Assembly: GCA_937864235.1 (NCBI GenBank)
Contig: CALMJI010000014.1
Span: 5,769 to 69,768, forward strand
Reading direction: 5' to 3'
From: an uncultured bacterium
GTDB taxonomy: Bacteria > Patescibacteriota > Minisyncoccia > SW-4-49-11
Length of the DNA: 64,000 nucleotides
In this document: piece by piece, positions 8,449-49,105 of the stretch
Layout: the number at the start of each line of letters is the position of its first letter
Numbering within the stretch: the first letter of the stretch is position 1
Translations under genes and position numbers: made by a program
The notes under the pieces: generated by a model
Told to the model about the DNA's origin: nothing
The model's database searches: none
The model's input: only the letters and a program-made list of their open reading frames with translations

Positions 8449-8645
8449 GATGAGGTAATTGTCGACAAAAGGGATTATATACATTACTATACTAATAACA
8501 GTAAATTGGGTGGTAATTGTCCTCCTTTGCCTGCCTGCGGTAGGCAGTGAGGAGGTGGCACAGAGTGCCGGAGGTGGATAGATTTCTAGTTTATGTTTTA
8601 TCCACCCCCGCCTTTCAGGCTTCCCCCTCCGAAGGGGGACAAAAC
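8449..8645. repeat. GC-rich modular hairpin repeat, copy R1 (carries the AT-rich 5' leader 'gatgaggtaatYgtcgacaaaagRgat')
   Basis: Shares the leader and the modules gtcctcc..aggaggtggcac, ggcacagagtgccgg, ggaggtggat..atccaccc and cccctccgaagggggac with the copies at 44676 and 48925. Confidence 0.6.
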
Positions 8646-8774
8646 TAATATTTTTTTGTCACAACCACTCAAGCAAATATAATGTCCACTTACGTAACTC
8701 GTAAATTGTCTACGATCCTTCTTATCTTATTCAGGGTATGATATAATATAAAAGTTATAAATAAACATAAATCT

Positions 8775-9614
8775 ATGCAGATTGAACCTGGAACTTCTCC
8801 AAAACATCGTTATGAGTTAATAAAATCTACTCTACTGGTCATTATTGGGGCTCTGATTACTATTACTGTAATCTATGGGATTGACTATTTTAGCCCGAAA
8901 GCAGAACCTGATCCTATAGCAGTAGTGGAACCAGTATCTCAAACAGAGCCTGTTGTGGAAGAAAAATCTACTCCTACTACCACCCCTACTCCAGAAGCTC
9001 CTAAAGAAAAAGTTTATTCTCAAGATGAACTGAATAAAATATTCGAGATGGATAAGAAAAAACCTGGTACTAAATTATTCTATTCTGATAAACTTGGGGT
9101 TGGGTTTACTTATGCTCCAAGAAAAGATTTTCCCGAACTAACTCCTGATACTGTAACAGAAATAGACAATATAATTTATTTATCTGAAAAGGAATCCGCT
9201 ACCCCTTCTAAATTAAAAGAAGGTTATGGGTTAAGTTTAGAAGTATTTACAAAAGACCCTAAAGATACTCTTGATCAGGCTGTTACCAAAGAGTTCTTAG
9301 CTGGAGCTGATTCTAAAAATTGTTTTATTGTTTCACAAAAAGACTCTAAGATTCCTTATGCTAAGAATGGTCCATTTGTTATTTCTGAGATTGGTTATCC
9401 ACCATCAGAGGACAGTGCTATTGTTGGAGATAAGTGTCCCCTCAAAGCTCAGCCGTACGCTCAAACAAATGCTGCTCAATTTTTCTTTGCTGAGAAAAAA
9501 GATTCATCTCAATATGGATTTTTAGGTCTAGGACAAGGAGCTTTTACTGCTGATTCCGGAATTAATGGAGATAATGTTGGGTCTTGGACCGACACTATCC
9601 GCTTCTTAAAATAA
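8775..9614 (+). CDS. Hypothetical secreted or membrane-anchored protein
   Basis: N-terminal TM helix, then a P/T/E-rich linker; no recognisable catalytic motif. Confidence 0.3.
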   Translation: MQIEPGTSPKHRYELIKSTLLVIIGALITITVIYGIDYFSPKAEPDPIAVVEPVSQTEPVVEEKSTPTTTPTPEAPKEKVYSQDELNKIFEMDKKKPGTKLFYSDKLGVGFTYAPRKDFPELTPDTVTEIDNIIYLSEKESATPSKLKEGYGLSLEVFTKDPKDTLDQAVTKEFLAGADSKNCFIVSQKDSKIPYAKNGPFVISEIGYPPSEDSAIVGDKCPLKAQPYAQTNAAQFFFAEKKDSSQYGFLGLGQGAFTADSGINGDNVGSWTDTIRFLK

Positions 9615-9626
9615 ATCTTGCCTAAT

Positions 9627-9660
9627 AAAAAGAGGGAGCGAACCACTCCCCTTTTTTATT
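9627..9660. terminator. Bidirectional intrinsic terminator between convergent genes
   Basis: A-tract, then gggag..ctccc hairpin, then T-tract (aaaaagagggagcgaaccactcccctttttt). Confidence 0.45.
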
Positions 9661-9682
9661 TTGATTTATAAAGTTAAATTTT

Positions 9683-11485
9683 CTAACTCTCCCCGTCTTT
9701 GGTTTTGATAAGATTTAGGGCATGTTGGAAGTCTTCGGCTGGGGTAAGTATTCCTTGATTAATAAAGAATATCTGGTCGGCTTTTTTGATAGTATTAAGC
9801 CTATGAGCGATTATGACTTTGGTGGTGGTATCTGGTAATTGATTGATTATATCTTGTAGATTTTGCTCGGTGACCGTATCTATATTGGCGGTAGCTTCGT
9901 CTAAAATCAATAATTGTGGGCGCCTTAGTAAAACTCTAATAAAAGAAATAATTTGTTTTTGACCTATACTGATAGCGTTATTTTCTATATTAGTGGCTAC
10001 TCCATATTCAAAATCAGATATTAAATCTAATAGATTATTGTCTTTGAGTATTTCGATTAGTTCAGCATTACTTTTATTAGCTAAATCTGGATTTCCATAT
10101 CTAATATTATCACCTATAGTACCTGAGAATAGGAATGGCTCCTGTAAAATAAAACCTATGGCTTTGGTTCTATCCTCTGCAGTATGAGTCCTGATATCTT
10201 TATTATATAATTTAACTAGACCTTTTTGTGGATCATAAAGACGTGCCATCAGGGAAGCAGTGGTACTTTTACCTCCTCCGGTTGGTCCAACTAGGGCATA
10301 AGTTTTTCCTTGTTCTAGATTGAAATTCATATTTTTGAGAATTTGTTTTTCATCATATCCAAAACTAACATTTTCAAATTCTAAAATATGTTTAGTTTTT
10401 CTCTTTTTTAAGCCTGATTTATCTTCTTCTAAAATTAAATTAGATTCTAAGCTAATAATTTCCTGAACTCTAGTCCAGGCGGCTAGAGCTCCCTGTAGAC
10501 TGCCTACTATGGAACCTAAAATTCTCAATGGCTCAAAGAATTTTTGAGCATAAGCTAAGAACCCTATCAATAAACCAATTGTAATACTACCTGATAAGAT
10601 AAAACTAACTCCTATTGCGAGCAGGATAATTTGTGATAAGTTAGCTACAAAGGTATATAATGGAGCTATACTGTCATTGAGAATATTGGTTTGAATTTTT
10701 GAGCTATATACAGCTTGGCTAATCTTATTGAAATTATTTTGATAATAATCTTGAATCTGAAAAGCTACTATGGCATTAAAATTAAGTAAGCCCTCTTGTA
10801 CTTCTGAAGATAATGCTCCCTGATTTTCTAAACCAACTTTATTGACTCCTTCTATAAATGGAGTAGCAATTCTAGTAATAATCAAAATTATAGCTGTTAA
10901 AATAAAGACTATACTTGCTAATTGCCAATTTAGATAAAGCATCATAGCAGCTATTCCTATTAAAGAAAAGAAAAGTGAGGTAAATCTCAAGACTCCCTCT
11001 GATAAAAATTGATTGATTTTATTGGTGTCATTGTTAATTCTAGAAATTAAATCACCTGCTTTATTACGGTTAAAGAAGTCTATTGGTAAACTCTGTAGAG
11101 AAGAAAAGACTTTGGCTCTTAGTCTAAACAAAACTCTTTGTGAAACATAGCCCATAATTCTAGCTTGGCCATAAGCTGCAATAGCTGAGATAATATACAA
11201 TATTACTAATCCTAGAGACATTATGGCTAAAGTTTGTATATCTTTATTGGCAATAGGACCATCTATGGCTCTAGTAATGATATATGGGGTTATAACTCCT
11301 GTTCCAATATTTATAAGTACAGTGATTATAATAATAATTAAATTCCTAGTCTCTCCTACAAAAAGCGGTAAAATTGTAGCCAAAGACTCCTCAAAAGAGG
11401 GTGGTTGATTGTGATTTTGTGATAATTTATAGGGGTTTTTCATACTAGGTGGTTTGTTGACTTTGCCATATTTGAGCATATTCAA
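9683..11485 (-). CDS. ABC transporter ATP-binding/permease protein (exporter half-transporter)
   Basis: Six-helix TMD plus NBD with Walker A 'GPTGGGKST', signature 'ISIGQKQ', Walker B 'LILDEAT'. The annotated 5' end overlaps the upstream gene by 41 nt, so the real start is probably internal. Confidence 0.7.
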   Translation of the reverse strand: MNMLKYGKVNKPPSMKNPYKLSQNHNQPPSFEESLATILPLFVGETRNLIIIIITVLINIGTGVITPYIITRAIDGPIANKDIQTLAIMSLGLVILYIISAIAAYGQARIMGYVSQRVLFRLRAKVFSSLQSLPIDFFNRNKAGDLISRINNDTNKINQFLSEGVLRFTSLFFSLIGIAAMMLYLNWQLASIVFILTAIILIITRIATPFIEGVNKVGLENQGALSSEVQEGLLNFNAIVAFQIQDYYQNNFNKISQAVYSSKIQTNILNDSIAPLYTFVANLSQIILLAIGVSFILSGSITIGLLIGFLAYAQKFFEPLRILGSIVGSLQGALAAWTRVQEIISLESNLILEEDKSGLKKRKTKHILEFENVSFGYDEKQILKNMNFNLEQGKTYALVGPTGGGKSTTASLMARLYDPQKGLVKLYNKDIRTHTAEDRTKAIGFILQEPFLFSGTIGDNIRYGNPDLANKSNAELIEILKDNNLLDLISDFEYGVATNIENNAISIGQKQIISFIRVLLRRPQLLILDEATANIDTVTEQNLQDIINQLPDTTTKVIIAHRLNTIKKADQIFFINQGILTPAEDFQHALNLIKTKDGES

Positions 11486-13172
11486 TAGAGCTATGTAAAA
11501 GCTTTTTATGTTTCCCGGTGGCTAATAACTCTCCTTCCATAATTACTATGATTTGATCATAATCTTGGATTGGTTCAATTTTTTGAGTAATTGAGATTAA
11601 AGTTAAATCCGGATAATTCTGTGCTAATGATGATATTATTTCTTTTTCAGTTCTAATATCTACTCTGGCTGTAAAATCATCTAGGAGCAATATATTTGGG
11701 TTCCTAACTAGGGCGCGAGCTAACATTATTCTTTGTTTTTGCCCTCCTGATAGATTGGTCCCTCTTTCACTTATTTTAGTTTCTATACCTTCTGGTAAAG
11801 ATTGGATTATTTCTGTCACATTGGAGGTTTTGAGTGCTTTTGTATAATATTCTTCTGAGACTTCATTATTAAAGACTATATTCTCTCTAAGAGAGGTATT
11901 AAACAAAATACTTTCTTGAAATACAAGCCCCATATTTTTAAAAATATAGTCTGGATCCCATTGGCTAAGAGGGATATCGTCGATTAAAATTTGTCCTGAA
12001 GTGGGTTGAATTAAGCCTGTAATTAGTGACAGGATAAGGCTTTTACCAGAACCAGTTGGGCCTATAATAGCATTTTTACTCTGTGGGTTAATACTAAAGG
12101 ATATGTCTTTTAATAAAGTTTTACCCTTAATTTCATAAGAGACTTGCTCAAAGGTAATTTTGCCTTTGACTGGATTTCTGATTAGATTTTTTTTAGCTTT
12201 CTTTTGTATTTCTGGTGAATTTAGAACTGTTTGTATTCTGGATAAAGAGACAAGTCCTCTGGAGATAAAATTACTTACAAAACCAAGAATAAAAATTGGG
12301 GTAATCAACAGATTAAAATAAGAGATAAAAGCACTAAATTCTCCTAAAGTTAAATCTTCTACCATAACTTGTCTTCCTCCAAACCAGATAATAGTGACAA
12401 TTGCAAAGTTAGAGACTAGATTGATAGTCGGGATAAGGCTTGCAAAAACATTTATAATTTGAAGTCCTACATCTCTTCCTTCTTTATTTACATTATCAAA
12501 TTTTATATTCTCATAATTTTGGGAATTCAGTACTCTGATTAGCATAGATCCCATTACACTCTCATTAATAACTTTATTGATTTTAGATAATATTTCTTGA
12601 GAAGAGCGGAATAATTTGAATATATTCTTAAAAATAAAAGCAAAAACTGCTATTATAATTGGTAAAGAAATAATAGCAATCAAAGCTAATCTGACATTGA
12701 TGGTAAACAACAAGACTACACTACCAATTAAAATTATTAAGGCGGAGAATATACTAGCAAAACCCTGCGATATTATATCCTTAACCTGTTCTACATCTGA
12801 TGTAATATTGGTAAATAATTCAGAAGAATCTTTCTCTTCAATAAAACTAATTGGTTGGGCTAGAATTTTTTTAATTAAAGAATCTCTCAAATCCTTGGCT
12901 ACTCTCTCGGCTATATAGACACTAATTACTGTCTGTACTAAACTTATTAAAACTACAGAGATTGCAATTATAGACAATAGCCATATATCTGGAGATAATT
13001 TGTATAAATCTCTATTTTGGCTAAAGTTGTCTATGCTATCTCCTAATATTCTTGGGATAAGTAAATTAGCTCCGTTAGAGATGAAAATAAGCAAAGTTAA
13101 AAAAATTGTCCAACCTATATAGGGCTTTAAAAATCTTAAATCTATTTTTGATTTATTAGTATTTTTTGACAT
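11445..13172 (-). CDS. ABC transporter ATP-binding/permease protein (partner half-transporter)
   Basis: TMD plus NBD with Walker A 'GPTGSGKS', signature 'LSGGQKQR', 'LLLDDFTA'; adjacent to a paralogous half-transporter, suggesting a heterodimeric exporter. Confidence 0.7.
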   Translation of the reverse strand: MSKNTNKSKIDLRFLKPYIGWTIFLTLLIFISNGANLLIPRILGDSIDNFSQNRDLYKLSPDIWLLSIIAISVVLISLVQTVISVYIAERVAKDLRDSLIKKILAQPISFIEEKDSSELFTNITSDVEQVKDIISQGFASIFSALIILIGSVVLLFTINVRLALIAIISLPIIIAVFAFIFKNIFKLFRSSQEILSKINKVINESVMGSMLIRVLNSQNYENIKFDNVNKEGRDVGLQIINVFASLIPTINLVSNFAIVTIIWFGGRQVMVEDLTLGEFSAFISYFNLLITPIFILGFVSNFISRGLVSLSRIQTVLNSPEIQKKAKKNLIRNPVKGKITFEQVSYEIKGKTLLKDISFSINPQSKNAIIGPTGSGKSLILSLITGLIQPTSGQILIDDIPLSQWDPDYIFKNMGLVFQESILFNTSLRENIVFNNEVSEEYYTKALKTSNVTEIIQSLPEGIETKISERGTNLSGGQKQRIMLARALVRNPNILLLDDFTARVDIRTEKEIISSLAQNYPDLTLISITQKIEPIQDYDQIIVIMEGELLATGKHKKLLHSSIEYAQIWQSQQTT

Positions 13173-13202
13173 ATAATATTAGAAAGCTAAATATATTGTA
13201 GC

Positions 13203-14858
13203 TTAGCTTCGGTCTATAAATTCCTCTCGGGAGCAGGGATCTGGCTTGATCAGATGTTGTGGAATCATAGCTTGTAATAATGATTCACTATTAGCTCCTA
13301 ATTTGGCTATATCATAAGCTAATTGTCTATAATTAATATGTCCTCCCGGTCTGACTCTAAGTTGTGTCATATAGCTAATTTCCTTAGGGGAAGCATGGAA
13401 AAATGAAGTAAAAATATGAGCAAATGGGAGTAGTTGAGTATAAATATATTGAGGGAACCAATCATATTGTGAACTTAAATCTACAAATTCTTGTAATTTG
13501 GTATAGTATTGTTGCAAATCCTGCTCAAATTCTTGTCTAATCTCTTTGAGAGCTGGGTTTTTGGTCAAATATAACGGTAAAGTATACCCTGTATAGAGAC
13601 TTGCTTTATAATTACTAGTGTTCAAAATTGGAATGTATCTACCCCAAGCTCGATGCCGATTCAAGTCTCTTAATTCAGAGTTAGAGCAAGTGAGTACAAA
13701 ACTATGGGTATTGACTCGAAATAAATTACCCATTTGTTTGTGATGATTGAAGTCTTTGAACAAAATTTTAGAAATATATGCCTTTTGTTCTATATTCAAA
13801 TTATCTATGAATTGTAAAATTGAATGAATATTGGCATTGGGATATATAGTTATAATATGTTGTAATAAAATTATAGTTCCCGCACTTAAACTCATATCTA
13901 ATAAGTCTGCTTTGAGTTTATGGCAAGTAATAGTATTTGCAAACTCTAAAGATTGGGTGATTTTTAGATGTTCTTCTAGATACTGCTGTAGTATATTCAA
14001 GTTTTGATTGGTAATAGTATCTGCCTCAGTATGCCTGATTAAATCTGGAGCTTCTGGAGTGTATTTTAGCTCTTGAGCTACACTTTCTTCTGGGGCAAAA
14101 AGTACTTCTAATTGCTCAGCAAGACAGACTAAATTATATTCATTGGAAGCCTTGAAAACTGAGATCAATCTAGCCCATTCTCTGGCTGAGGTTATATAGG
14201 CTAATGAAGTCTTATTCATCAGACCAGAGGGTAAAAAGTATCTAGTAGAGTCAAAAACTCTGGCTGTCAGAGCTCCTGCTTCTGACTTATTATTTTCATC
14301 TATGTTATATACTCTTGTGTATTCTGAGGTTAATTTGTCTTGGTAGTATTTATACTTTTCTAGAGAATATTGCTGTAAATCTAATAATTTCTGGTTAATT
14401 GTATCAAAGTTTTCTGAAGTTGTATCTACTCCTAGGCTATCAAGTCCCAGAGGCTTACTACTGCCAAAATCCTGATACCTAGTAGATCTTTGTTGCCCTC
14501 CTCCGACACTACTTTCATTAAAAAATATAGTAGAATAATGGTCTGGAATTTGCTCTATATAGGCAAAAAGTTGTGCCATATCTGCTACTGAGGAGTGGCC
14601 ATAATTACGAAAAATATTGGCTAGCTTTTCATTAGCATTACTGCCTGCTTTTCTAATTTCTTGGAATAACTCCTCTGCTGATAGGGCTGACCTTGAAAAT
14701 CTAGCCCCTGCAAAAGCCATAATAGATGCAGTTTGTTTGCCTGAATTTGGCAAAGCGGTTCTGACTGTATAGCCGGTACGAGAATCAGTAACCGAGACTA
14801 TAACTAAATCTGTTTTATCCTTGTCCGAGATACTAAATTTAAAGTTTGATTTATTCAT
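13203..14858 (-). CDS. thyX: Flavin-dependent thymidylate synthase ThyX-like protein (long, probably duplicated-domain form)
   Basis: 'QQRSTRY' in the N-terminal half and 'NRHRAWGRY' in the C-terminal half, matching the ThyX RHR...SxRY signature; immediately followed by dcd on the same strand. Confidence 0.45.
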   Translation of the reverse strand: MNKSNFKFSISDKDKTDLVIVSVTDSRTGYTVRTALPNSGKQTASIMAFAGARFSRSALSAEELFQEIRKAGSNANEKLANIFRNYGHSSVADMAQLFAYIEQIPDHYSTIFFNESSVGGGQQRSTRYQDFGSSKPLGLDSLGVDTTSENFDTINQKLLDLQQYSLEKYKYYQDKLTSEYTRVYNIDENNKSEAGALTARVFDSTRYFLPSGLMNKTSLAYITSAREWARLISVFKASNEYNLVCLAEQLEVLFAPEESVAQELKYTPEAPDLIRHTEADTITNQNLNILQQYLEEHLKITQSLEFANTITCHKLKADLLDMSLSAGTIILLQHIITIYPNANIHSILQFIDNLNIEQKAYISKILFKDFNHHKQMGNLFRVNTHSFVLTCSNSELRDLNRHRAWGRYIPILNTSNYKASLYTGYTLPLYLTKNPALKEIRQEFEQDLQQYYTKLQEFVDLSSQYDWFPQYIYTQLLPFAHIFTSFFHASPKEISYMTQLRVRPGGHINYRQLAYDIAKLGANSESLLQAMIPQHLIKPDPCSREEFIDRS

Positions 14859-14865
14859 AATATTT

Positions 14866-15444
14866 TTAATCTTTTATTTTCTCAAAATTTTTATGCATAT
14901 CACTAGCTTGCACTCCTCTGGAATCATAATATTTACTACCAAGAGATGATGTTCCGTAAGGTTTTTGAGCTGGGGTTTTGAGTTCATAAAACGCAATTTG
15001 AGCAATTTTCATCTCTGGATACAGCCTAATTGGGACGGTATTGGTATTTACAAATTCCAAAGTAGCATTAAGCTTATTGCCTGGATCAATAAATCCTGCC
15101 GTAGTATGCACGATTAAACCATACCTGGCTAGCGAACTTTTGCCCATAATTTGACAGGCATACTTTTCATTACAACCAAAATAATCTTTGGTTACTCCTA
15201 ATATAAATTGCCCTGGATGAATTACAAAATACTCATCTGGACTAGATAATACAACTTTTTCCATAAAGTTATGTATTGGTTTTTTGGGATCTATACATTC
15301 AAATTTATGATTATTGAATATCATAAACTCATATCCCAAAAGCACATCATAGCTAGCTGGTTGTAATCTATTCTCATCAAAATCATTAATTATAATATCT
15401 CCTACTTCTAGTGCTTGCTTTATATCTATATCTGATAATTGCAT
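14866..15444 (-). CDS. dcd: dCTP deaminase
   Basis: 192 aa; N-terminal 'ASYDVLLG' and dUTPase-like fold motifs. Confidence 0.7.
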   Translation of the reverse strand: MQLSDIDIKQALEVGDIIINDFDENRLQPASYDVLLGYEFMIFNNHKFECIDPKKPIHNFMEKVVLSSPDEYFVIHPGQFILGVTKDYFGCNEKYACQIMGKSSLARYGLIVHTTAGFIDPGNKLNATLEFVNTNTVPIRLYPEMKIAQIAFYELKTPAQKPYGTSSLGSKYYDSRGVQASDMHKNFEKIKD

Positions 15445-15456
15445 ATCTCTTTTGAC

Positions 15457-16386: not shown

Positions 16387-16403
16387 ATAATTAATGTTTA
16401 TCT

Positions 16404-18778: not shown

Positions 18779-19045
18779 GTGGATCTCGTGAATCGCAGGG
18801 GCAACCTTGCAGTCACCTGTGTTTTTGTATTATGACCTTTTGAATTTCTGTCCTCCTTCGGAGGAGGTGGCACAGAGTGCCGGAGGTGAATTGAGCTAAA
18901 AATTAAATTCTATCCACCCTCCCCCTTACGGGTACTCCCTCCAAAGGGAGGCAAAAGCTCCGGTACAAAAATACCTCGGGCGACATAAGGTCGCATCTAC
19001 GAACACAAAACTCAATGGAGGGATAACCTCTCCACTACGACTCTC
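18779..19045. repeat. GC-rich modular hairpin repeat, copy R2 (abuts ychF stop codon)
   Basis: Modules gtcctccttcggaggaggtggcacagagtgccggaggtg, ccctccaaagggagg and gggcgacataaggtcgcatctacgaa. Confidence 0.6.
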
Positions 19046-20175: not shown

Positions 20176-20440
20176 TGGGGAGGGTGGATGTATTTTTGTA
20201 ATTTAAGATTTTGCTCTGTAATTTAATAGGGGCGACTTTTCAGTCGCCCCTATTGTCCTCCTCCGTCACCTACGGTGACACCTCCCCCAAGGGAGGGAAA
20301 AAACTGTCCCTCGCCGGCGAGGGGGGACCGCGTAGAGGTGGGTGTGGACAGTCGACTTACAGGTCGCCCCTACGAATACATAAAACAATGGAGGGATAAA
20401 CCCCATCACAAATAAAGTATGTGATGACCTCAAACCCTCC
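20176..20440. repeat. GC-rich modular hairpin repeat, copy R3 (in the ychF / rpsF divergent region)
   Basis: Modules ggggcgacttttcagtcgcccc, gtcctcctccgtcacctacggtgacacctcc, gtccctcgccggcgaggg and ggtcgcccctacgaa. Confidence 0.6.
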
Positions 20441-28704: not shown

Positions 28705-28915
28705 AGTGGAGGTTTTTAGTCCATCCCATACCTTGTTTGGGATAGGATTTATCCCTCCAGTTTTTCGTAGGGGCGACCTTTCAGTCGCCTTAAATTCCCC
28801 TCGTTGAGGGGTGCCCGTAGGGCGGGGTGGAGTGTTTTGTTTTTCATATTTATTCCACCCCGTCAGGCAAGCCTGCCACCCCTCAATTTATCTCCCGTAG
28901 GGATGAGAGGGAAAT
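28705..28915. repeat. GC-rich modular hairpin repeat, copy R4 (pgl / dnaE divergent region)
   Basis: Modules ggggcgacctttcagtcgcc, cccctcgttgaggggtg and ccaccccgtcaggcaagcctgccacccctcaa. Confidence 0.6.
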
Positions 28916-35520: not shown

Positions 35521-35810
35521 GTTTCCGTAGGTGCGACCTTCTTAGTCGCCCGTAAATCCACCCCGTCTCTATACTATAAAAATATAGTATAGATCACCCC
35601 TCAAGAGGGGAATTTAGCTCAGTCCACACCCGGCACTCCGTGCCACCCTCGCCGGCGAGGGACAAAATTACTGTCCTCCCTTGCCTGCCTGCGGTAGGCA
35701 GGGGGGAGCTTTCAGTCCCTCCTATATTTATATAGGAGGGGGTGGCCATCAGGCAGGAGGAGGACAAGTGGACGACTGAAAGGTCGCCCCTACGAAAGAA
35801 ATTATCCCGT
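35521..35810. repeat. GC-rich modular hairpin repeat, composite copy R5
   Basis: Modules gtgcgaccttcttagtcgccc, ccaccccgtc, cccctcaagagggg, ggcactccgtgcc, ccctcgccggcgaggg, gtcctccc..cctgcctgcggtaggcagg and ggacgactgaaaggtcgcccctacgaa. Confidence 0.6.
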
Positions 35811-41158: not shown

Positions 41159-42268
41159 TTAATCCCGAATAGGCATTATAAGATAATAGAAGTCGGGAGT
41201 CTCGGAGCTTTTGATAATAACCGGAGAATCAGTATCATTGAGATGGAATTGTATAGCACCTTCTTTGAATAACTGAATACCATCTAAGAGATAATTATAG
41301 TTAAAAGTAATTGTGAGTCCAGTGTCTCCTGTACTATGAACAGGGATTTTGGTTTTATTAGATCCTGTTTGAGAATCTGAAGAGCTTACATTTAGATTTT
41401 TGTCGTCTTGCAAGTTTAATTTCACATCATTGACGGCATTTTGAGAAAAAACAGATGCTAATTTGATAGCTTGTACCAATTCTTGACTATCACAATCAAA
41501 AGTTGTTCTAAAAGATTGTGGAATTAATCCCTCATATTGTGGAAAATTACCGTCAATTAATTTGGATATAATCTCGACAGTATCAGCCAATAATTTAATT
41601 TGGGATGAACCAAATTGAAAAGTAACTTCAGTTTCCTCAATAGTATCCAAAACTCTAATCATCTCAGCTACAGTTTTGCTAGGAATAATTACTGAAAAAT
41701 CACTGCCTTCTAAATTATTTAGATTGAATTTTTTTTCACTCAATCGAAATCCATCAGTTCCCACAAAGACTAATTGATTTCCTTTTTTGGCTAGATAAAC
41801 ACCAGAAATTTCAGGACGAAACTCATTTCTTGGTAACGATCCATATACAGTTTTCAACCCTTGTTTCAAATCATTACTATTAATAGATATTTGATTCTCT
41901 ACTTCTATTTCTGGTAAATTAGGAAAGTCCTCAGCAATAATTCCTTTGAATTGAGCTGAGATATCATCACCTTGCTCTACAGTTAATTCATCATTCACAA
42001 CACTCAAATTAAGTTTATCCTGTGGCAAGTTCCTAATATAGGCTAATAATGTATCTTGAGGGATACAAATTGCCCCCTCTGAATCTTCTTTACCCCGAAT
42101 ATGGACTCTGATACCAATTTCAAGATTAGTAGAGGTTATAGTTAGAGATCCTTGCTTTCCTTGTAATAAAAAGGTTTGTAAAATTGGTAAAGTTGTAGCT
42201 CGAGAAGAACTTTGACGAGCAATATTTAATCCTTTTAAAAGATTTTCTTGCAAACAGGTAAATTTCAT
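41159..42268 (-). CDS. dnaN: DNA polymerase III subunit beta (sliding clamp)
   Basis: 369 aa, three-domain clamp architecture, located immediately downstream of dnaA. Confidence 0.8.
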   Translation of the reverse strand: MKFTCLQENLLKGLNIARQSSSRATTLPILQTFLLQGKQGSLTITSTNLEIGIRVHIRGKEDSEGAICIPQDTLLAYIRNLPQDKLNLSVVNDELTVEQGDDISAQFKGIIAEDFPNLPEIEVENQISINSNDLKQGLKTVYGSLPRNEFRPEISGVYLAKKGNQLVFVGTDGFRLSEKKFNLNNLEGSDFSVIIPSKTVAEMIRVLDTIEETEVTFQFGSSQIKLLADTVEIISKLIDGNFPQYEGLIPQSFRTTFDCDSQELVQAIKLASVFSQNAVNDVKLNLQDDKNLNVSSSDSQTGSNKTKIPVHSTGDTGLTITFNYNYLLDGIQLFKEGAIQFHLNDTDSPVIIKSSETPDFYYLIMPIRD

Positions 42269-42429
42269 ATCTTATCTATCTTAAACTATACTATAATTAT
42301 ACCTTGAATAAACTTTTTTTACTAGATTTGTATTTTTGTTCTTTTTTTATTATATATATAATAGTAGATAATAGTGTCTGTGGAAAAGCTGAAAACTACT
42401 TTTTAGTAGCATAAATACACGATGTCAAG

Positions 42430-42574
42430 TGTGGATAATATTTGGGATAAGTGTTTGTAAAGTTTGGGGATAAATAAACTTGATATTGAAGTCTGTGGAT
42501 TACTTTGAATTTATACACAATTTTATTCACATAAAAAGTGTAATTTTGGATAACTTATACACAGGTTATACACA
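42430..42574. promoter_or_regulatory. DnaA-box cluster in the dnaA-dnaN intergenic region (candidate oriC)
   Basis: Perfect TGTGGATAA (42430..42438). One-mismatch boxes tgtggatta (42494..42502) and ttatacaca at 42511, 42555 and 42566, within a 400-bp AT-rich spacer. Confidence 0.5.
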
Positions 42575-42668
42575 ATGGGTGTTTTAAAATTATTATGAGT
42601 TATAAAATATTATCCTCCAAAGGGAGACAAAAACACAAATCAAAATTTATTAAAAAACAACTCTATCC

Positions 42669-44108
42669 CTAAGAATTTTTAGGGTTTTCTTCATTATACA
42701 GTTTATTTTTAATCATCGCTATATCTTGTTCTAGAGTATAATTGGAGACTAAATCTTTTTTGATCTTATTCCAAGCATGCATAACTGTGCTGTGATCTTT
42801 GCCACCCAAAGCTTCTCCAATATTAGGAAAGGTTAATTTTAATTCTTCTCGAATCAAATACATAGTAATTTGTCTTGGTACCGCAATATCTTTTTTACGG
42901 CTTTTGGATAAAATATCTTCTTTTTTAATATGAAAATGTTCAGCTACAATATTCAAAATTGTATCAGTATTGACAATTCTCTGAGAGTGAATTTGTCCTC
43001 CTTCAATCAATTTATCTACTAATTCAGGAGTAATTTGAGTATTTAATAATTGCACTCTAGCAATAATTTTATTCAAAGCACCTTCTAATTCACGGACATT
43101 GCTTTTGATTCTCTCGGCAATAACATAAATAATCTCATCGTCTAAATCAAAATGTTTTTGAATACATTTACTTTTCAAAATAGCTACTCTAGTCTCAAAT
43201 TCAGGAATAGCTACATCCACAATCATCCCTCCTTCAAAACGAGATTTCAATCTATCATTAAGAGTCTTAATAGCACTAGGAGGTCTATCGCTAGTAAATA
43301 CAATTTGTTTATTATGAGCATATAATTCATTAAAAGTATTAAATACTTCATATTGAGTAGCTTCTTTCCCACCAATAAATTGAATATCGTCAATTATAAG
43401 CAAATCTACAGCTCTATGGCGAGCTTTAAAATCATCCATTTTCCCATTTTTGAGAGAATTCATCAAATCTGAGATAAAGATATCCGAAGTCACATATAGT
43501 ATATTTTTATTATTTTTAGCTAATTTATTAGCAATAGCTTGAATCAAATGAGTTTTACCCAAACCAACTCCACCATAGATAAACAGAGGATTATATCTAG
43601 TTCCAGGTTCATTAGCTACCGACTGAGCAGCCGCATGAGCCAGCTCATTGGAAGATCCCACAATAAAGTTTTCAAAAGTGTAATTTTCTTTCAAAAGAGA
43701 AGTTCCATTTGGTCTTTGAGGCTGTACAAAATTATTCCCAGACTCAGAATTAAAGCCACCATTAGATATAGATGTGGCAGATAAAGCTTCTTTTTGAGAC
43801 TGTAACTCTTGATCCTTTAGATTAATAACTGATTTTATAGATTTGGAATTAGTCTTTTGATTATTCTGAACTACATATCTAACCCTTTTAACAGAGCCAG
43901 TAATTTTTTGAATAGAATTAAGAATAGTAAGATTGAATTTATTCTCTAGCCAATTACGAGTAAAAGCACTAGGTACGCAAATTACAATCTCAATCTCATC
44001 CATACTAATAGGATAAGTATTTTTGATCCAAGTATTGAATTGAGGCTTACTAATATTAAGCTCTATCTCTCCTAATACTGAATTCCAAACTCTTTGTTTC
44101 TCGTCCAT
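42669..44108 (-). CDS. dnaA: Chromosomal replication initiator protein DnaA
   Basis: AAA+ Walker A 'GGVGLGKTHL' and C-terminal DNA-binding domain 'IAMIKNKL'; 479 aa. Confidence 0.9.
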   Translation of the reverse strand: MDEKQRVWNSVLGEIELNISKPQFNTWIKNTYPISMDEIEIVICVPSAFTRNWLENKFNLTILNSIQKITGSVKRVRYVVQNNQKTNSKSIKSVINLKDQELQSQKEALSATSISNGGFNSESGNNFVQPQRPNGTSLLKENYTFENFIVGSSNELAHAAAQSVANEPGTRYNPLFIYGGVGLGKTHLIQAIANKLAKNNKNILYVTSDIFISDLMNSLKNGKMDDFKARHRAVDLLIIDDIQFIGGKEATQYEVFNTFNELYAHNKQIVFTSDRPPSAIKTLNDRLKSRFEGGMIVDVAIPEFETRVAILKSKCIQKHFDLDDEIIYVIAERIKSNVRELEGALNKIIARVQLLNTQITPELVDKLIEGGQIHSQRIVNTDTILNIVAEHFHIKKEDILSKSRKKDIAVPRQITMYLIREELKLTFPNIGEALGGKDHSTVMHAWNKIKKDLVSNYTLEQDIAMIKNKLYNEENPKNS

Positions 44109-44139
44109 TGCAATCGTCTAATTGATGATGTTTATAAAC

Positions 44140-44148
44140 TGTGGATAA
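44140..44148. promoter_or_regulatory. DnaA box in the dnaA promoter region
   Basis: Perfect TGTGGATAA 32 nt upstream of the dnaA start. Confidence 0.4.
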
Positions 44149-44286
44149 GTTAATTCCATTATACTCTATTAGAGAATTTTTGCAATAATATAACAAAACA
44201 TATAGCATAAATATAACAAAAAACACACTTTTCACTTTTATTTCACTTTTGAGCATTAAAGAAAAAACCCCATCCGAAGATGGGTG

Positions 44287-44616
44287 TTAGTAGTTAAAGT
44301 ACATGATTTTTCCATAAATCATAATATATCTCGAATTTCTACCTATGTGTAAAGGCACACAAACCGTACCACTCTCAGAAACCTGTATATGATTTTTATT
44401 TACATTATCATAACCCAGAGCTTCTAGTTTTGAGTATAACTCTTCTATTGTTAGGGATGTCCTAATAAGAAGTTCTATAATTTTTTCATCATTATCATAC
44501 TCAACTTGATTGAGAGCAAATCTTTTTGCAAGTTTAGGCATGGGAAAATTTATTATAGCTGATAGAACTTGAAACTCTTGATCTGGAGAAGGTTTTTTAG
44601 AAAGAACTGATGACAT
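44287..44616 (-). CDS. Hypothetical protein
   Basis: 109-aa ORF upstream of dnaA; no motif recognised. Confidence 0.25.
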   Translation of the reverse strand: MSSVLSKKPSPDQEFQVLSAIINFPMPKLAKRFALNQVEYDNDEKIIELLIRTSLTIEELYSKLEALGYDNVNKNHIQVSESGTVCVPLHIGRNSRYIMIYGKIMYFNY

Positions 44617-44675
44617 AGTTACCTCAAACTTGCAAACTCAACCATAACACAAAAACAAGAATTTAGCAAGTTGGT

Positions 44676-44900
44676 GTACGAGATGAGGTAATCGTCGACA
44701 AAAGAGATTGTATACATTACTAGTCTACTAACATTAAGTTCCGATAGTAGTTGTCCTCCTTTGGAGGAGGTGGCACCGTAGGTGACGGAGGAGGACAAGA
44801 TATCAAGATTATATTTAATATAATAGAATAATATTAATCTTTAAAATATATAGTCCACACCCACCACCTCGTGGTCCCCCCTCGCCAGCGAGGGACATAA
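44676..44900. repeat. GC-rich modular hairpin repeat, copy R6 (with AT-rich 5' leader)
   Basis: gtacgagatgaggtaatcgtcgacaaaagagat leader, then gtcctcctttggaggaggtggcaccgtaggtgacggaggaggacaag, then cccctcgccagcgagggac. Confidence 0.6.
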
Positions 44901-45012
44901 TATAATAGTTACTCAATTCCAAATATTTTCTATGATATCCTAATCTCGTACAAAACCTTGACTTTATATCTAATATGAGGTATAATGTTGTTTAATTATG
45001 TATTTATAGATT

Positions 45013-45147
45013 ATGGTAAAAGGAGCTGCAAGTAAGAATCGTAAAAGAAATCGCCGTCACGGATTTTTATCTCGTATGGCTACCAAAGCAGGTAGAGCTG
45101 TGATAAATCGCCGAAGAGCTAGAGGAAGAGCTAAACTTTCTGTTTAA
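45013..45147 (+). CDS. rpmH: 50S ribosomal protein L34
   Basis: Manual translation [44 protein letters not shown] (44 aa). It is below the ORF-track length cutoff; the classic rpmH-rnpA-yidC arrangement lies divergent from dnaA. Confidence 0.8.
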
Positions 45148-45177
45148 TTTTTATAGGATTTAAAATTAATATTTTTA

Positions 45178-45495
45178 ATGCAAAGGCTTCATCAGTCATC
45201 AGACATAGCCGCAATGTTTGCTCAGATAAAACCTCAATATCTGGATAACTTTCAGATATATTGTATAAAAAATAATTTACTAGATCATAGAGTGGGAGTA
45301 ATTATTGCCAAAAAACATATTCCCTTAGCCGTGGATAGAAATTGTCTCAAAAGACAAATTCGAGAACTATGTCGACGAAATTTGATTACAAAAAGCAATA
45401 AATATGATATACTAGTACTAGTTAGGACTAAAATTACCACTAGTAAAGCTAATTTTTTATCTCAACTTAATAATTATATTAATAATTTAACTTAA
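45178..45495 (+). CDS. rnpA: Ribonuclease P protein component
   Basis: 'AVDRNCLKRQIRE' RnpA motif; follows rpmH. Confidence 0.7.
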   Translation: MQRLHQSSDIAAMFAQIKPQYLDNFQIYCIKNNLLDHRVGVIIAKKHIPLAVDRNCLKRQIRELCRRNLITKSNKYDILVLVRTKITTSKANFLSQLNNYINNLT

Positions 45496-45505
45496 AAAAT
45501 CTGTT

Positions 45506-46270
45506 ATGGGATGGCTATTCAATGAATTACTATATCGACCATTATTTAATTCTATGGTGTTTTTTTATAACACTATTCCGGGAGCTAATATTGGTTTAGC
45601 AGTCATTCTAACTACACTAGTAGTTAGAATACTTATGATACCTCTATATAGGGCTAGTATCAAAAGTCAAAGAGAAATGACAATAATTCAACCAATTGTT
45701 AAGGAATTGCAGACCAAATATAAAGATGATAGACAAAAACTATCCGAGGAAATGCTAAAAGCTTACAAAGAGCATAATGTTAATCCTTTTGCTGGAATTT
45801 TATTGTTATTTGTACAAATTCCAGTTTTAATAGCTATTTATCAGGTGTCTTTGAATATTTTTAAACCAGAAACTTACCCTGCTTTATACTCTTTTATAAC
45901 CCTACCAGAGAATTTTGATCCTAATTTTTTTGGATTATTGAATGTCGCAGATGCTAGAAATATTATCTTAGCTCTTATTGTTGGAATATCTCAGTATTAT
46001 CAGATTAAGCTTATAATGAAGCGAAATCAACCTGCTAAGCCAAAAGATACTAAGAAATCTAAAAATAAAAAATCAAAGCAACCAGAAGAGCCAGATTTTG
46101 CTACCACTCTTAATAAACAAATGTTATTCTTGATGCCAATTTTGGTAACTATTTTTGCCTATTCTTTCCCAGCCGCTATGAGTTTATATTGGATTACTAC
46201 AACTTTATTTACCATAGGACAGGAATTTATCTTAATCAAACAAGTAGATAAGGCTGAGGGAATCAAATAA
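45506..46270 (+). CDS. yidC: Membrane protein insertase YidC (short form)
   Basis: 254 aa, five TM helices; 'LVVRILMIPL' and conserved C-terminal helices; follows rnpA. Confidence 0.7.
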   Translation: MGWLFNELLYRPLFNSMVFFYNTIPGANIGLAVILTTLVVRILMIPLYRASIKSQREMTIIQPIVKELQTKYKDDRQKLSEEMLKAYKEHNVNPFAGILLLFVQIPVLIAIYQVSLNIFKPETYPALYSFITLPENFDPNFFGLLNVADARNIILALIVGISQYYQIKLIMKRNQPAKPKDTKKSKNKKSKQPEEPDFATTLNKQMLFLMPILVTIFAYSFPAAMSLYWITTTLFTIGQEFILIKQVDKAEGIK

Positions 46271-46279
46271 TTCTCGCTT

Positions 46280-47707
46280 ATGACTTTGAATAAAAAATTA
46301 GCTCTGAATAGTGTTATCCAGATTTTGGGTAAATTTGTGATGATTGGAGTTGGTTTTGTGTCTATTTTTATCTTAACTTATTTTTTAGGAGTTGAGGGTT
46401 TTGGAGCTTATACTACGATTACAAATTATCTAATTATAGCTACAGTCTTGGCTGAATTTGGTTTTAATGCTCTATTAACTACCGAAATTGCAGGTAAAAA
46501 TGAAAAGCAAATATCTCATATAGTTAATAATTTATTCACCTTTAGATTGGTGATGGCGATTTTGGTAATTGGTATGATTGCCTCTACTTCGGTTTGGTTA
46601 ATCCCAGCTTATACAGTAGAAATTAAGACTTTAGTGGCTTTGGGAGCGATTGGATCGATTGGGGCTTCTTTGTCTCAAGTAGTGATTGGAGTTTTTCAGA
46701 CCAAACTTCGTACAGATAGAATCACAATTGGAGATTTTTTGGCTAGAATTACCTTGATGTTGGGAGTTTTAGCTTTGGCTCTAATTGGGCAGGTGAATTT
46801 GTTTTGGGTTATGGTCTGGTATAGTGTGTCTGGCATTGTACAAGCTATATTTATGATTTCAGCTACTTATAAATATTATCCAATTAGATTAAGTATAGAC
46901 TGGACTTATTGGAAAAGTATTATAAAAAAAGCTTTACCCCTATTTGTAATTATTACCTTTAATCTAATTTATTATCGCATAGATACCGTGATGTTGTCAG
47001 TGATGAAAGATCAGACCGCAGTCGGACTTTATGGTATATCTTATAAAATCTTAGAGATACTGATTGCTATTCCAGGGATGTTTATGGGCTTATTATTACC
47101 ACTATTTACTAAATATTATCTACAAGATAAGGCTAGATTTCAGCATATTTTTCAACAAGCCTTTAATATTCTAGTTAGTGTGGCTGTACCTTTGGCGGTA
47201 GCAGGGATATTGCTATCTACTCAAATTCTAGCACTTTTTGGACAAGATTTTACACCAGCTACTAGTACCTTACAAGTTTTATTCATCGGGATTGGGTTTA
47301 TATTCCTTGGTAATCTTATGGGACATATTCTAATAAGTGCGGAATTACAAAGTAAAAGTATGTATATTGCAATTATGGGAGCTTTATTCAATGTATGCCT
47401 AAACCTTTATCTAATCCCAAAATATTCTTATTTAGGAGCAGCTACAGCTACAGCGATCACAGAAGGTTTGGTATTATTAAGTTATATTTATCTTGTTCGC
47501 AAACATATAAAATATTTCCCAAAATTACAATTTATACATTTAATTACTATCTTAGCAACTACTTTGATGGGACTTGCTATATACTTTAGCTCAAGCTGGA
47601 ATGTATTCTTGCAGACAATTTTGGCAATAGTGGTATTTGGGTTAGTTATATTACCTCTAGGAGTCAAGAGATTAAAACAATATTATGCCATCAATATTCA
47701 AGAATAA
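46280..47707 (+). CDS. Polysaccharide biosynthesis protein / oligosaccharide flippase (MOP/Wzx-like)
   Basis: 475 aa, about 12-14 TM helices, N-terminal 'LNSVIQILGKFVMIGVGFVSIFILTYFLGVEGFGAY' typical of Wzx/MurJ-like flippases. Confidence 0.6.
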   Translation: MTLNKKLALNSVIQILGKFVMIGVGFVSIFILTYFLGVEGFGAYTTITNYLIIATVLAEFGFNALLTTEIAGKNEKQISHIVNNLFTFRLVMAILVIGMIASTSVWLIPAYTVEIKTLVALGAIGSIGASLSQVVIGVFQTKLRTDRITIGDFLARITLMLGVLALALIGQVNLFWVMVWYSVSGIVQAIFMISATYKYYPIRLSIDWTYWKSIIKKALPLFVIITFNLIYYRIDTVMLSVMKDQTAVGLYGISYKILEILIAIPGMFMGLLLPLFTKYYLQDKARFQHIFQQAFNILVSVAVPLAVAGILLSTQILALFGQDFTPATSTLQVLFIGIGFIFLGNLMGHILISAELQSKSMYIAIMGALFNVCLNLYLIPKYSYLGAATATAITEGLVLLSYIYLVRKHIKYFPKLQFIHLITILATTLMGLAIYFSSSWNVFLQTILAIVVFGLVILPLGVKRLKQYYAINIQE

Positions 47708-48473
47708 AAAAATATCTTTTATAATAGTTTCTTATAAAAGTAAAAAATTCTTAACAGATTGTGTGAATTCAATTATTAAATATACCTCTGGAGAGTATGA
47801 AATTGTTATTGTAGACAATAATTCAGGGGAAAATTTAGATGAAATTCAAAACTTATCCACATCTAAAATTAAAATTATATATTCTCAAAAAAATGCCGGA
47901 TTTGGCTCTGGGGTGAATCTAGGAGCTACTCAAGCTACAGGAGATTGGCTATGTATAATTAACCCAGACACACGAATACAAGGAGATATCCACACATTAT
48001 CCACAATTGACAAAAACACTAAGCTGATTGGTCTGGCTCTAGTCAATCAAGAAAATCAAATTCAGGCTTATCAGTATGGAGACTTCCCTACTCCCAAGAG
48101 TATAATTAGTAATAGGGCTAAAAAACAATGGCAAAACCCAACACAAGAGACAATATCCACTGATTGGATTAGTGGAGGCTCAATTTGTATAGAGGCAAAA
48201 CTTTTCCAAGAGCTCGGAGGATTTGATGAGAGATTTTTTATGTATTATGAGGATATAGACTTATGCTATCGAGCTAAACAAGCCGGACATCAAGCTTATT
48301 GGACACAACAGGTTACAATTTGGCATTATGAAGGCGGCTCCGAGAGTAGAATTATAAATACCAAAAAAAGATATTACAAATCCCAAAGACAATACATAGC
48401 TAAGTGGTATGGTCAAATCTGGACAATATTGCTGTACCCCTTGCATTTGATACAGTTGGTGAGACTAAAATAA
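47685..48473 (+). CDS. Family 2 glycosyltransferase
   Basis: 'ISFIIVSYKS...YEIVIVDNNSGEN' GT-A N-terminus and DxD-type 'YYEDIDLCYRA'. Confidence 0.65.
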   Translation: MPSIFKNKKISFIIVSYKSKKFLTDCVNSIIKYTSGEYEIVIVDNNSGENLDEIQNLSTSKIKIIYSQKNAGFGSGVNLGATQATGDWLCIINPDTRIQGDIHTLSTIDKNTKLIGLALVNQENQIQAYQYGDFPTPKSIISNRAKKQWQNPTQETISTDWISGGSICIEAKLFQELGGFDERFFMYYEDIDLCYRAKQAGHQAYWTQQVTIWHYEGGSESRIINTKKRYYKSQRQYIAKWYGQIWTILLYPLHLIQLVRLK

Positions 48474-48475
48474 AT

Positions 48476-48640
48476 TGTCCTCCTTTACCTGCCTACCGCA
48501 GGCAGGCGAAGGGGGACAAAATAAACTGTCCTCCCTTGGGGGAGCTTTAAGTCCCTCCTATATTTATTTAGGAGGTGGGTGGCACCGCAAGGTGACGGAG
48601 GAGGACAAGCTGGAGACCTTTTAGGAGTCCCTCCTAAAAT
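48476..48640. repeat. GC-rich modular hairpin repeat, copy R7
   Basis: gtcctcctttacctgcctaccgcaggcagg..gtcctcccttggggg..ggagg..ggcaccgcaaggtgacggaggaggacaag. An inverted, near-identical copy lies at 58353..58495. Confidence 0.6.
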
Positions 48641-48721
48641 ATTCACAAAACCCTTTACAAAAAAACTTAAGTAATGATAAAATAAAAAAGTAGTCTTTAT
48701 GAGTACTACAATTCATATTTT

Positions 48722-48768
48722 GTTTGGGAACTGAGTGTTTAATTGAAGCCTTTACACTCAGTTCTTTT
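48722..48768 (+). terminator. Intrinsic terminator downstream of flippase/GT2 genes
   Basis: aactgagtgt/acactcagtt 10-bp stem followed by ctttttttg. Confidence 0.45.
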
Positions 48769-48924
48769 TTTGTTCAAGATAATAATGATTTTGCTAAGGT
48801 AAAGAAAAAGCTCGAGTCATTGCTCGAGCTTTCACAATGATCACCAGAGTTAGACTCTGGATCGGTGGGTAACTCCAAAAGCAATATAATAATATAAGAA
48901 TATTTTGCTTTTGTCGATACAATG

Positions 48925-49105
48925 TACGAGATGAGGTAATCGTCGACAAAAGGGATAGATACATTACTAAACTAATAACAGTAAATTGGATAGTAATTGT
49001 CCTCCTTTGGAGGAGGTGGCACGGAGTGCTGGAGGTGGATTGAGTTCTAGTTTATGTTTTATCCACCCTCCCCCTACGGGTACTCCCTCCTAAGGGAGAC
49101 AAAAT
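48925..49105. repeat. GC-rich modular hairpin repeat, copy R8 (with AT-rich 5' leader), upstream of mod
   Basis: gtacgagatgaggtaatcgtcgacaaaagggatagatacattactaaactaataacagtaaattgg leader, then gtcctcctttggaggaggtggcacggagtgctggaggtggat..atccaccc and cgggtactccctcctaagggag. Confidence 0.6.

Follow-up and report, generated by a model that had tools for sequence, protein, structure and literature searches.

Miniature transposable elements with inverted repeats (MITEs) derived from insertion sequences (ISs) of the IS3 and IS481 families are small, non-coding and multicopy, carry imperfect TG...CA inverted repeats, are flanked by duplications of 3-5 bp and show presence/absence polymorphism. The parental families have TG(T)...(A)CA tips and duplicate 3-5 bp (IS3) or 4-15 bp (IS481) of the target (ISfinder values); IS481 has one open reading frame (ORF), and IS3 a frameshifted orfAB. 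We describe here a repeat with the properties of such MITEs, whose ends match those of fragments from a putative transposase-bearing relative. It occurs three times in a stretch of 64,000 nucleotides from an uncultured bacterium (contig CALMJI010000014.1, positions 5,769 to 69,768; the whole stretch is called the window below). The window DNA has a GC content of 33%, its closest named relatives are Candidatus Paceibacterota/Parcubacteria, and it was also found in metagenome contigs of the Joint Genome Institute (JGI). The repeat differs from IS3/IS481-derived MITEs in its long arms (~95 nt each), in its core, which is a variable stack of GC-rich palindromes, and in its position- and orientation-specific insertion relative to promoters: nearly every copy lies 5 bp upstream of a -35 box, a geometric rule that is well supported. 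To our knowledge, promoter-specific insertion is unreported for the IS3 and IS481 families. The full-text literature searched contained no report of a bacterial IS or MITE targeting a -35 box, nor of MITEs in bacteria of the candidate phyla radiation (CPR), silence there being no proof of absence. Such precise promoter-directed target choice by a bacterial MITE is apparently new.

Transposons of the Tn7 and Tn5053/Tn402 types have TGT tips, generate a 5-bp duplication and insert in a specific orientation at a fixed distance from a protein-marked site. They use TnsB or TniA together with an AAA+ regulator and a TniQ or TnsD selector, and each of their ends contains several transposase-binding repeats. 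The tips, the duplication and the oriented, fixed-distance insertion are shared by our element, whereas the regulator, selector and repeat features were not found. No TniQ, TnsC or TnsD gene was detected in the window (40 ORFs scanned), and no TnsB-type family appeared among the matches of the transposase fragment described below, whose 41-aa tail is a weak test. The best candidates for extra inner-repeat copies in the arms, GTAATYGTC (left) and GATRCAT (right), had scores equalled by shuffled sequences in 28% and 86% of cases, respectively. The eukaryotic retroelements Ty3, Ty1 and Dictyostelium TRE integrate beside RNA polymerase III (Pol III) promoters, tethered by TFIIIB or Pol III. With these the element has in common a precise promoter-relative position, tRNA genes as neighbours and a safe-harbour strategy in a compact genome; in contrast to them, it is a bacterial DNA transposon at sigma-70-type promoters, for which tethering can only be inferred.

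The ISAjo2 group of the IS1202 family, known as "dif-site hunters", has 5'-TGT...ACA-3' tips and imperfect inverted repeats of 24-26 bp; its members insert in one orientation with a 5-bp duplication (3-4 bp in some of them) that abuts a protein-binding site 5 bp away (PMC10132070). The insertion geometry of our element is almost identical, a resemblance in working mode which is not evidence of membership. The target differs: it is the XerC arm of a dif-like site in that group but the -35 box of a promoter here. XerC/XerD arms are lacking in the flank, which lies upstream of tRNA and protein genes, and no CATAA/TTATG dyad arm arrangement was found in the element flanks. We considered a dif-like Xer site, given that TTATGnTATAAT resembles the XerD arm TTATGTTAAAT. 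This candidate was rejected: there are tens of such sites upstream of genes, an XerC-type arm is lacking, and TRTGn is the known extended -10 motif.

Copies were collected from the window, from representative genomes and from metagenome contigs, and a relaxed search of fetched loci added diverged ones; the related loci compared amount to ~370 kb and carry L-numbers. The family comprises three copies in the window, three in one Parcubacteria metagenome-assembled genome among the representative genomes, 25 in metagenome contigs and the diverged extras, more than 30 in total. An element starts with TGTAYGAGATGAGG and ends with ...GTCTACGATGCATCTCATCTTATTCA; it is typically 269-292 bp long (188-457 bp overall) and consists of a conserved left arm (~95 nt, the "leader"), a variable core and a conserved right arm (~95 nt), both arms being AT-rich. 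Otherwise near-identical copies differ in the core by whole GC-rich palindromic modules, so that its size ranges from almost nothing (~20 nt, in the 188-bp elements of L020 and L041) to ~300 nt (in the 457-bp elements of L017 and L035). The ends are imperfect inverted repeats, TGTAYGAGATGAG...CTCATCTTATTCA, with the arm termini 5'-TGTAYGAGATGAGGTAATCGTCGACAAAAG... and ...CTTGTCTACGATGCATCTCATCTTATTCA-3'. By eye, ~21 of the first 28 positions match between TGTAYGAGATGAGGTAATCGTCGAC and the reverse-complemented right end TGAATAAGATGAGATGCATCGTAGAC, and global arm-to-arm alignment gave a score of 53, as against 36.7 +/- 7.3 for shuffled sequences. The tips read TGTA... and ...TTCA or ...TACA, and are near-perfect (TGTACGAG...CTCGTACA) in some copies (L031 1745-2016; window 44675-44952). 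None of the three window copies contains an ORF of at least 60 aa, nor do the copies have one in common. Because the repeats are small, multicopy and non-coding, have inverted ends and target duplications, and are missing from empty sites, their identity as a family of MITEs (non-autonomous DNA transposons) in a clade of Parcubacteria/Paceibacterota is well supported.

An earlier note on the window had drawn attention to an AT-rich leader common to three plus-strand copies (A, B and C below), followed by GTCCTCC...GGAGGTGGCAC hairpins, and our analysis agrees. Exact matches of the 20-mer GAGGTAATYGTCGACAAAAG lie at 8452, 44685 and 48933, and no other window site matches it even with 3 mismatches (chance expectation 0.04; none of 100 shuffles reached three). 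The aligned leaders read ...GAGATGAGGTAATYGTCGACAAAAGRGAT..ATACATTACTA..CTAATAACAGTAAATTGG..TAATTGTCCTCC and then enter the GC-rich hairpins. The defined 5' end proposed in that note exists, but the true edge lies a few bases upstream of the boundary given there: it is TGTACGAG at 44675 and 48923, mutated to TATACTAG at 8442. Common descent from one composite element also holds, but not the size of ~200 nt; the element measures ~270-290 nt, and an equally conserved AT-rich 3' arm ending in ...CTCATCTTATTCA (8733, 49193) had been missed. The note was right to regard the leader as the element's own sequence and not a product of the hairpins: 5-bp target duplications bracket the element, empty sites exist, and the flanks of the copies are unrelated, so a duplicated flanking sequence was rejected as its origin. 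A search for homologues in representative genomes and metagenomes found further leader-bearing copies in related genomes.

Direct evidence for transposition came from the flanks and from unoccupied sites. Identical flanking 5-mers border 9 of 25 distinct full-length copies, with 4 of 5 positions matching in six more, while permuted flanks produced a mean of 0.4 and a maximum of 5 perfect matches (10,000 trials). L032 lacks the element found at L031 1745-2016, these two loci being 98.8% identical across the junction. The site of copy A is empty in L060 and L061, whose neighbouring pseudouridine synthase genes are 92% and 86% identical to that of the window. They read ...ATATCATACCCTTACTATAAAT..., and the window (reverse complement) reads ...ATATCATACCC-element-TACCCTTACTATAAAT, with TACCC single in the empty sites and doubled in the window. 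Since L060 and L061 keep the unoccupied sequence, copy A is a clean insertion with a 5-bp duplication; it is recent, its left tip is mutated, and its right arm is lineage-specific. No empty site was found for copy C, the relatives being too different there, with a whole restriction-modification island absent or rearranged. The features of these two copies are as follows.

8408..8436, minus strand: target promoter of copy A, with -35 TTACTA (8436..8431), a 17-nt spacer and -10 TAGTAT (8413..8408)
8437..8441, no strand: left target-site duplication of copy A, GGGTA, single in the empty sites of L060 and L061
8442..8733, plus strand: MITE copy A, 292 bp, from sequence, alignment and the empty site in L060/L061
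~8442-8517: left arm ("leader") of copy A
8518-8646: GC-hairpin core of copy A
8647-8733: right arm of copy A
8734..8738, no strand: right target-site duplication of copy A, GGGTA
48889..48917, minus strand: target promoter of copy C, TCGACA-17-TATTAT, 10 of 12 matches
48918..48922, no strand: left target-site duplication of copy C, TACAA
48923..49193, plus strand: MITE copy C, 271 bp, canonical form, >90% identical to copies in L010, L026 and L031
48923-48997: left arm of copy C
48998-49105: hairpin core of copy C
49106-49193: right arm of copy C
49194..49198, no strand: right target-site duplication of copy C, TACAA
49257-51581, plus strand: type III mod gene

The position of the insertions relative to promoters was revealed by the 45 nt that lie beyond the TGTAYGAG end. 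Thirty distinct left flanks gave the logo ATTATA.CA-N-TTTTGTCAA-NNNNN|TGTA, which on the opposite strand reads TTGACA-17-TGnTATAAT, a canonical sigma-70-type promoter that has an extended -10 and is directed outward from the element. The best promoter match had an offset of exactly 5 bp and a spacer of exactly 17 nt at 34 of 43 ends, a set that includes a few chance matches. At least 9 of 12 promoter positions matched in that register at 30 of the 43 ends, as compared with 0.6% of 20,000 control positions; for at least 10 of 12, the values were 56% and 0.06%. It is the target duplication that makes up the five bases separating the -35 from the element. Where an element has mixed tips (one TGTAC-type and one TGAAT-type), it is the TGTAC-type tip that adjoins the promoter; where both are TGTAC-type, either may do so. 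All 22 strong MITE-adjacent promoters have a 17-nt spacer, as compared with 8, 15, 28, 15 and 11 sites with spacers of 15, 16, 17, 18 and 19 nt among the other strong promoter-like sites of the same DNA, a background set contaminated by chance matches in AT-rich DNA. The -35 hexamers beside the copies are quite variable (TACCTA, TTTTTA, TATACA, TTACTA and others), in contrast to the great regularity of the -10, of its TG extension and of the 17-nt spacing. The targets are mildly A-rich after the -35 (mean 1.94 A in 4 nt versus 1.59, p=0.03).

Judged by their position, the adjoining promoters appear to be functional. A tRNA gene (Ile, Thr, Glu or Gln) starts 11-34 nt past the -10 at 7 of 36 distinct promoter-adjacent ends, and an ORF starts 14-60 nt past it at ~22 of them. 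The promoter of copy A is placed to drive the pseudouridine synthase gene (8385..7720; Pfam S4 and PseudoU_synth_2), which starts 22 nt past the -10. The promoter of copy C fires leftward into a unit of ~80 nt that ends at an intrinsic terminator (48833..48806; 11 pairs, then a T run). This minus-strand unit (48800-48917) is a candidate small RNA (sRNA), in which inspection by eye revealed no plausible start codon; it is spanned by a 56-aa minus-strand ORF (48964..48794), whose start lies upstream, inside copy C. The promoter is the target and not cargo, for three reasons: its spacer sequence shows no relationship from one copy to the next, the duplication separates it from the element, and the two empty sites (L032; L060/L061) already contain it, unchanged in the case of copy A. 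The possibility that it is a part of the element was ruled out on the same three grounds.

The origin of the element is indicated by two fragments of an IS, both of which lie at the site orthologous to that of copy B. The earlier note had placed this copy correctly between dnaA-proximal genes and rpmH, and copy C directly upstream of mod. Copy B shares the leader and the first hairpins with the others and then diverges; its flanking 5-mers are unmatched (GTTGG vs AAACC), and it is an old, rearranged copy. It has a TGTAC-type tip at both ends, with an outward promoter 5 bp from either. The left promoter is placed to drive a 109-aa ORF (44616..44287), which starts 24 nt past the -10 and is preceded by GAGG, together with dnaA. 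The orthologous site is variously rearranged, decayed or empty in relatives.

42669-44108, minus strand: DnaA gene
44641..44669, minus strand: promoter 5 bp from the left end of copy B, TTGCTA, 17 nt, TATGGT, conserved in L054-L058
44675..44952, plus strand: copy B, 278 bp, leader with a different hairpin set and an inverted, TGTAC-type right terminus ...CCTAATCTCGTACA
44958..44986, plus strand: rpmH promoter, TTGACT-17-TATAAT, 11 of 12 matches, separated from the right end of copy B by 5 bp (AAACC)
45010-45144, plus strand: rpmH
Copy B site in L054: an IS remnant and another copy
Copy B site in L055, L056 and L063: hairpins only
Copy B site in L057: a decayed leader
Copy B site in L058: an unrelated gene
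Copy B site in L065: the IS itself

The L065 contig begins, in the rpmH/dnaA intergenic region, inside an ORF, AILSSWLIEYLSVRPHTSLNYLTPLEFLDSMSTISSSHTKP (...WLIEYLSVRPHTSLNYLTPLEFLDSMSTISSSHTKP), which runs through the terminus ...TCTACGATCTCCTCATCTCATACA (...CTCATCTCATACA); contig Ga0480383_0007514 (JGI 3300042966) begins within the IS. L065 holds the 3' 124 nt of the IS and L054 a remnant of 62 nt, and both join a matching terminus to the transposase C-terminus. The leader-type terminus of L054, TGTACAAGATGAGGTAATCGTCGACAAA..., is joined to the same C-terminus (TPLQFLDS...LSTITSS), and the reverse complement of the leader tip still encodes LSTITSS(H/R)T. The L065 peptide of 41 aa matched the C-terminal end of the Pfam family rve_3 (E=1.7e-5; 24.9 bits, below the gathering cut-off of 26.5), positions 259-283 of 284 of an NCBIfam IS481 transposase (E=0.018) and positions 344-368 of 369 of an NCBIfam IS3 transposase (E=0.021). 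We therefore assign the parent, provisionally, to the rve-type DDE ISs, as IS481/IS3-like; the element tips and duplications (5 bp, once 3 bp) fit the feature values of these two families. Because of the L065 and L054 fragments, the leader is taken to be the IS end into which the transposase ORF runs, from which it follows that the MITE would be an internal-deletion derivative of that IS. The IS fragment end in L065 also lies 5 bp from the rpmH -35, at the same promoter and with the same AAACC as copy B. Its transposase ORF has no stop inside the element (L065 nt 118-127) and ends at the TGA of the target promoter's -35 (CTTGAC); the C-terminus of the transposase depends on the insertion site, since the stop codon lies in the target. 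Viral contigs scanned with either terminus gave chance matches in coding DNA only.

We estimate a probability of roughly 0.8 that the MITE family consists of deletion derivatives of an rve-type IS which are mobilised in trans and integrate at sigma-70-type promoters with a 5-bp duplication. According to this proposal, GC-rich palindromic modules would have invaded the core between the arms, and a DDE transposase supplied in trans would mobilise the copies. What the copies show is that the TGTAYGAG-type end is joined at about -41 in a fixed orientation, the staggered cuts leaving a duplication of 5 bp (3 bp once) whose bases abut the -35 of an outward-firing promoter with a 17-nt spacer. Several observations weigh against the proposal, in addition to the contaminated background set mentioned above. 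The transposase is known from a C-terminal fragment of 41 aa, without the catalytic DDE region. No full-length autonomous copy was found in the related loci, no transposase gene is present among the 40 window ORFs (Pfam), and an all-against-all comparison of 263 ORFs from the ~370 kb of related loci gave syntenic orthologues only, with no multicopy ORF and no transposase. The L031/L032 event duplicated only AAC (3 bp) and not 5 bp; about 10 full-length copies have no good duplication, and 3-4 true ends have no promoter, both groups looking rearranged or old. The metagenome-derived copies have already been filtered by selection, so that the raw insertion spectrum is unseen. The involvement of RNA polymerase in targeting is inferred.

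As to the signal that is recognised, the transposition complex would most likely detect the promoter as occupied or distorted by the RNA polymerase holoenzyme, with sigma region 4 on the -35. A holoenzyme-bound promoter is favoured because the -35 is variable while the -10, the TG and the spacing are regular, because the spacers are uniformly of 17 nt, and because highly used promoters (tRNA, rpmH) are frequent among the targets. That an IS481/IS3-like IS and its MITEs in CPR bacteria may be guided by promoter-bound holoenzyme, or by DNA distortion upstream of the -35, is a tentative suggestion, which we hold at less than even odds. The main alternative, which is less likely, is that the targeting is real but polymerase-free, a DNA-binding domain of the transposase reading the -35 region directly, as a mimic of a motif in its own end. 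This would agree with the -35-like hexamer T(C/A)GACA found ~20 bp from the tip in both arms (TCGACAAAAG on the left, TAGACAAG on the right; targets TTGACAAAA) and with the mild A enrichment after the target -35, and the -10 boxes may merely reflect the fact that intergenic TTGACA motifs are real promoters. However, reading of the -35 alone predicts the opposite of the pattern of variable and regular parts that was observed, and the geometry is unlike end-mimicry, the motif being 20 bp away from the tip within the end, as opposed to a distance of 5 bp from the joint at the target. We regard direct reading as unlikely, though by no means negligible. The suggestion of a complete absence of target specificity, with random insertion and the survival under purifying selection of only those copies that landed just upstream of promoters, has in its favour that these genomes are gene-dense with short intergenic gaps, that every copy seen has already passed selection, and that the insertions are intergenic, as survivors would be. 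Selection should, however, tolerate a range of positions, yet the exact 5-bp offset predominates, with the TGTAC-type end proximal. Moreover, copy A split the -10 of a neighbouring divergent promoter from its upstream region, which is not obviously the least harmful position, and the uniform 17-nt spacer is not imposed by selection on the insertion position. A register of a single base pair cannot be achieved by selection alone, and this explanation is very improbable.

Two further explanations concern a function of the copies rather than their target. They might be co-opted regulatory cassettes which, for example, keep back-to-back promoters insulated from each other, stand in for upstream activating DNA or provide the gene on the right with an outward promoter, in which case their position would reflect function. 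The right arm of copy A does hold a strong rightward promoter-like site (TTGTCA-16-TATAAT, 8656-8683), and in L009 (~1883-1890) the right-hand target duplication contains the start codon of a miaA-like gene; because of this, the gene must be transcribed from or through the element. The site in copy A is nevertheless lineage-specific: no outward promoter in the right arm of the canonical copies passed the scan, and a universal promoter there was rejected. The presence of the copies varies among close relatives and they decay (L057), as selfish DNA does, and their position was fixed at insertion, as shown by the duplication abutting the -35. Co-option as a general explanation is consequently improbable. 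The earlier note had also suggested an sRNA gene family, with an unstructured 5' leader and a hairpin-rich body. The plus strand of copy C indeed folds better than shuffled sequences (z = -3.9) with its 5' and 3' ends paired, and all three window copies are co-oriented with the gene on their right. The end pairing is explained by the terminal inverted repeats, though, and the minus strand also folds well (z = -2.4), as DNA palindromes would. No Rfam family reached the gathering threshold on the 64 kb window or on copy C (best sub-threshold hit 15.9 bits, cut-off 73.5). RNAalifold on 12 copies gave a covariation term of -0.5 kcal/mol with 4 double-change pairs, all in swapped GC modules, which is a weak negative as the alignment is shallow; compensatory changes are lacking in the terminal helix, which is disrupted at every deviating terminus. 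The conserved promoter beside the leader points away from the element, no inward promoter occurs at a fixed position, and there is no terminator at the 3' end. Core length varies from ~20 to ~300 nt, and target duplications with empty sites mark a mobile insertion. The sRNA gene family is thus not supported by the present evidence and is very improbable. An origin from tRNA or tmRNA was also rejected, as neither is present in the window.

The modules of the core form a subject of their own. Like repetitive extragenic palindromic (REP) sequences, bacterial interspersed mosaic elements (BIMEs) and Rickettsia palindromic elements, they are short, GC-rich, imperfect palindromes which are multicopy, modular and nested in loops, and which occur between genes and in frame within a gene (mod); they differ from these in being far more GC-rich than the 33% GC genome. 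Modules of the MITE-core vocabulary lie in frame inside the mod ORF (49257-51581) at 49458-49501, 49726-49769, 49896-49943 and 51115-51209. The alignment of Mod proteins showed 31 aa (RQSTSPAKAGTPQDENIPLVEGWTAKQDGVDS) absent from L065 and 11 aa absent from both L064 and L065, and these insertions coincide with modules. The alignment shows the in-frame modules to be insertions, and they resemble the Rickettsia elements. Arrays of hairpin modules without arms occupy the intergenic positions 18779-18997, 20227-20374, 28765-28887, 35529-35794, 48479-48619, 58352-58530 and 62252-62405, apparently as a repeat layer of their own that spreads independently. No transposase of the REP-associated tyrosine transposase (RAYT) type was found among the 40 window ORFs scanned, small ORFs not all being covered.

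Other variable regions were noticed in the course of this work. A type III restriction-modification island (48474-56264; mod, RhuM-family, Bro-N, res) has copy C near its left edge. L063 contains, in place of this region, a glycosyltransferase gene, 98 nt and then an SNase gene, and since the whole block is missing there, it is read as an inserted island. The region between the ABC-transporter and pseudouridine synthase genes (8775-9614) is a hot spot of variation, with a 279-aa ORF without a Pfam match in the window, a 164-aa ORF in L060, two small ORFs in L061, and nothing in L059 and L062. At 2027-2497, ~430 nt are far more GC-rich than the genome, with only the ends conserved in relatives and no Rfam match (best E=0.12). 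The minus strand of this stretch has a promoter-like site, TTGACA-17-TATATA (2497..2466), and a hairpin with a T run at the far end (2030-2052); it could be an RNA of a new kind or another mobile insert. Between 56000 and 58100 the GC content rises to 43%, with overlapping ORFs of ~235 aa on the plus (57314-58021) and minus (57329-58033) strands, the former without a Pfam match; this DNA is possibly foreign.

To conclude, the repeats are selfish DNA and not RNA genes, so that annotation as sRNAs would be wrong; contig breaks in assemblies from these organisms are likewise explained by them. They represent a known class of element, the MITEs, with a promoter-directed insertion rule that is apparently undescribed, in an uncultivated lineage. 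The variable core, together with the in-frame insertions in mod, shows that GC-rich palindromes form a second mobile layer that is active in these genomes. The insertions moreover serve as natural promoter tags: as inferred from sequence, the tagged promoters of uncultivated Parcubacteria consist of TTGACA, a 17-nt spacer and TRTGnTATAAT, with the gene close behind, and those tagged include the promoters of tRNA genes, rpmH and the dnaA operon. Provided that the target rule holds, it adds a new way of choosing targets to those of bacterial DDE transposons, one that would suit very small, gene-dense genomes as a safe-harbour strategy and would be a candidate for polymerase- or sigma-guided integration that could perhaps be exploited. 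Should the polymerase-guided reading prove true, bacteria would have in this element an equivalent of Ty3/TFIIIB targeting, and prokaryotic transposons their first "promoter hunter".

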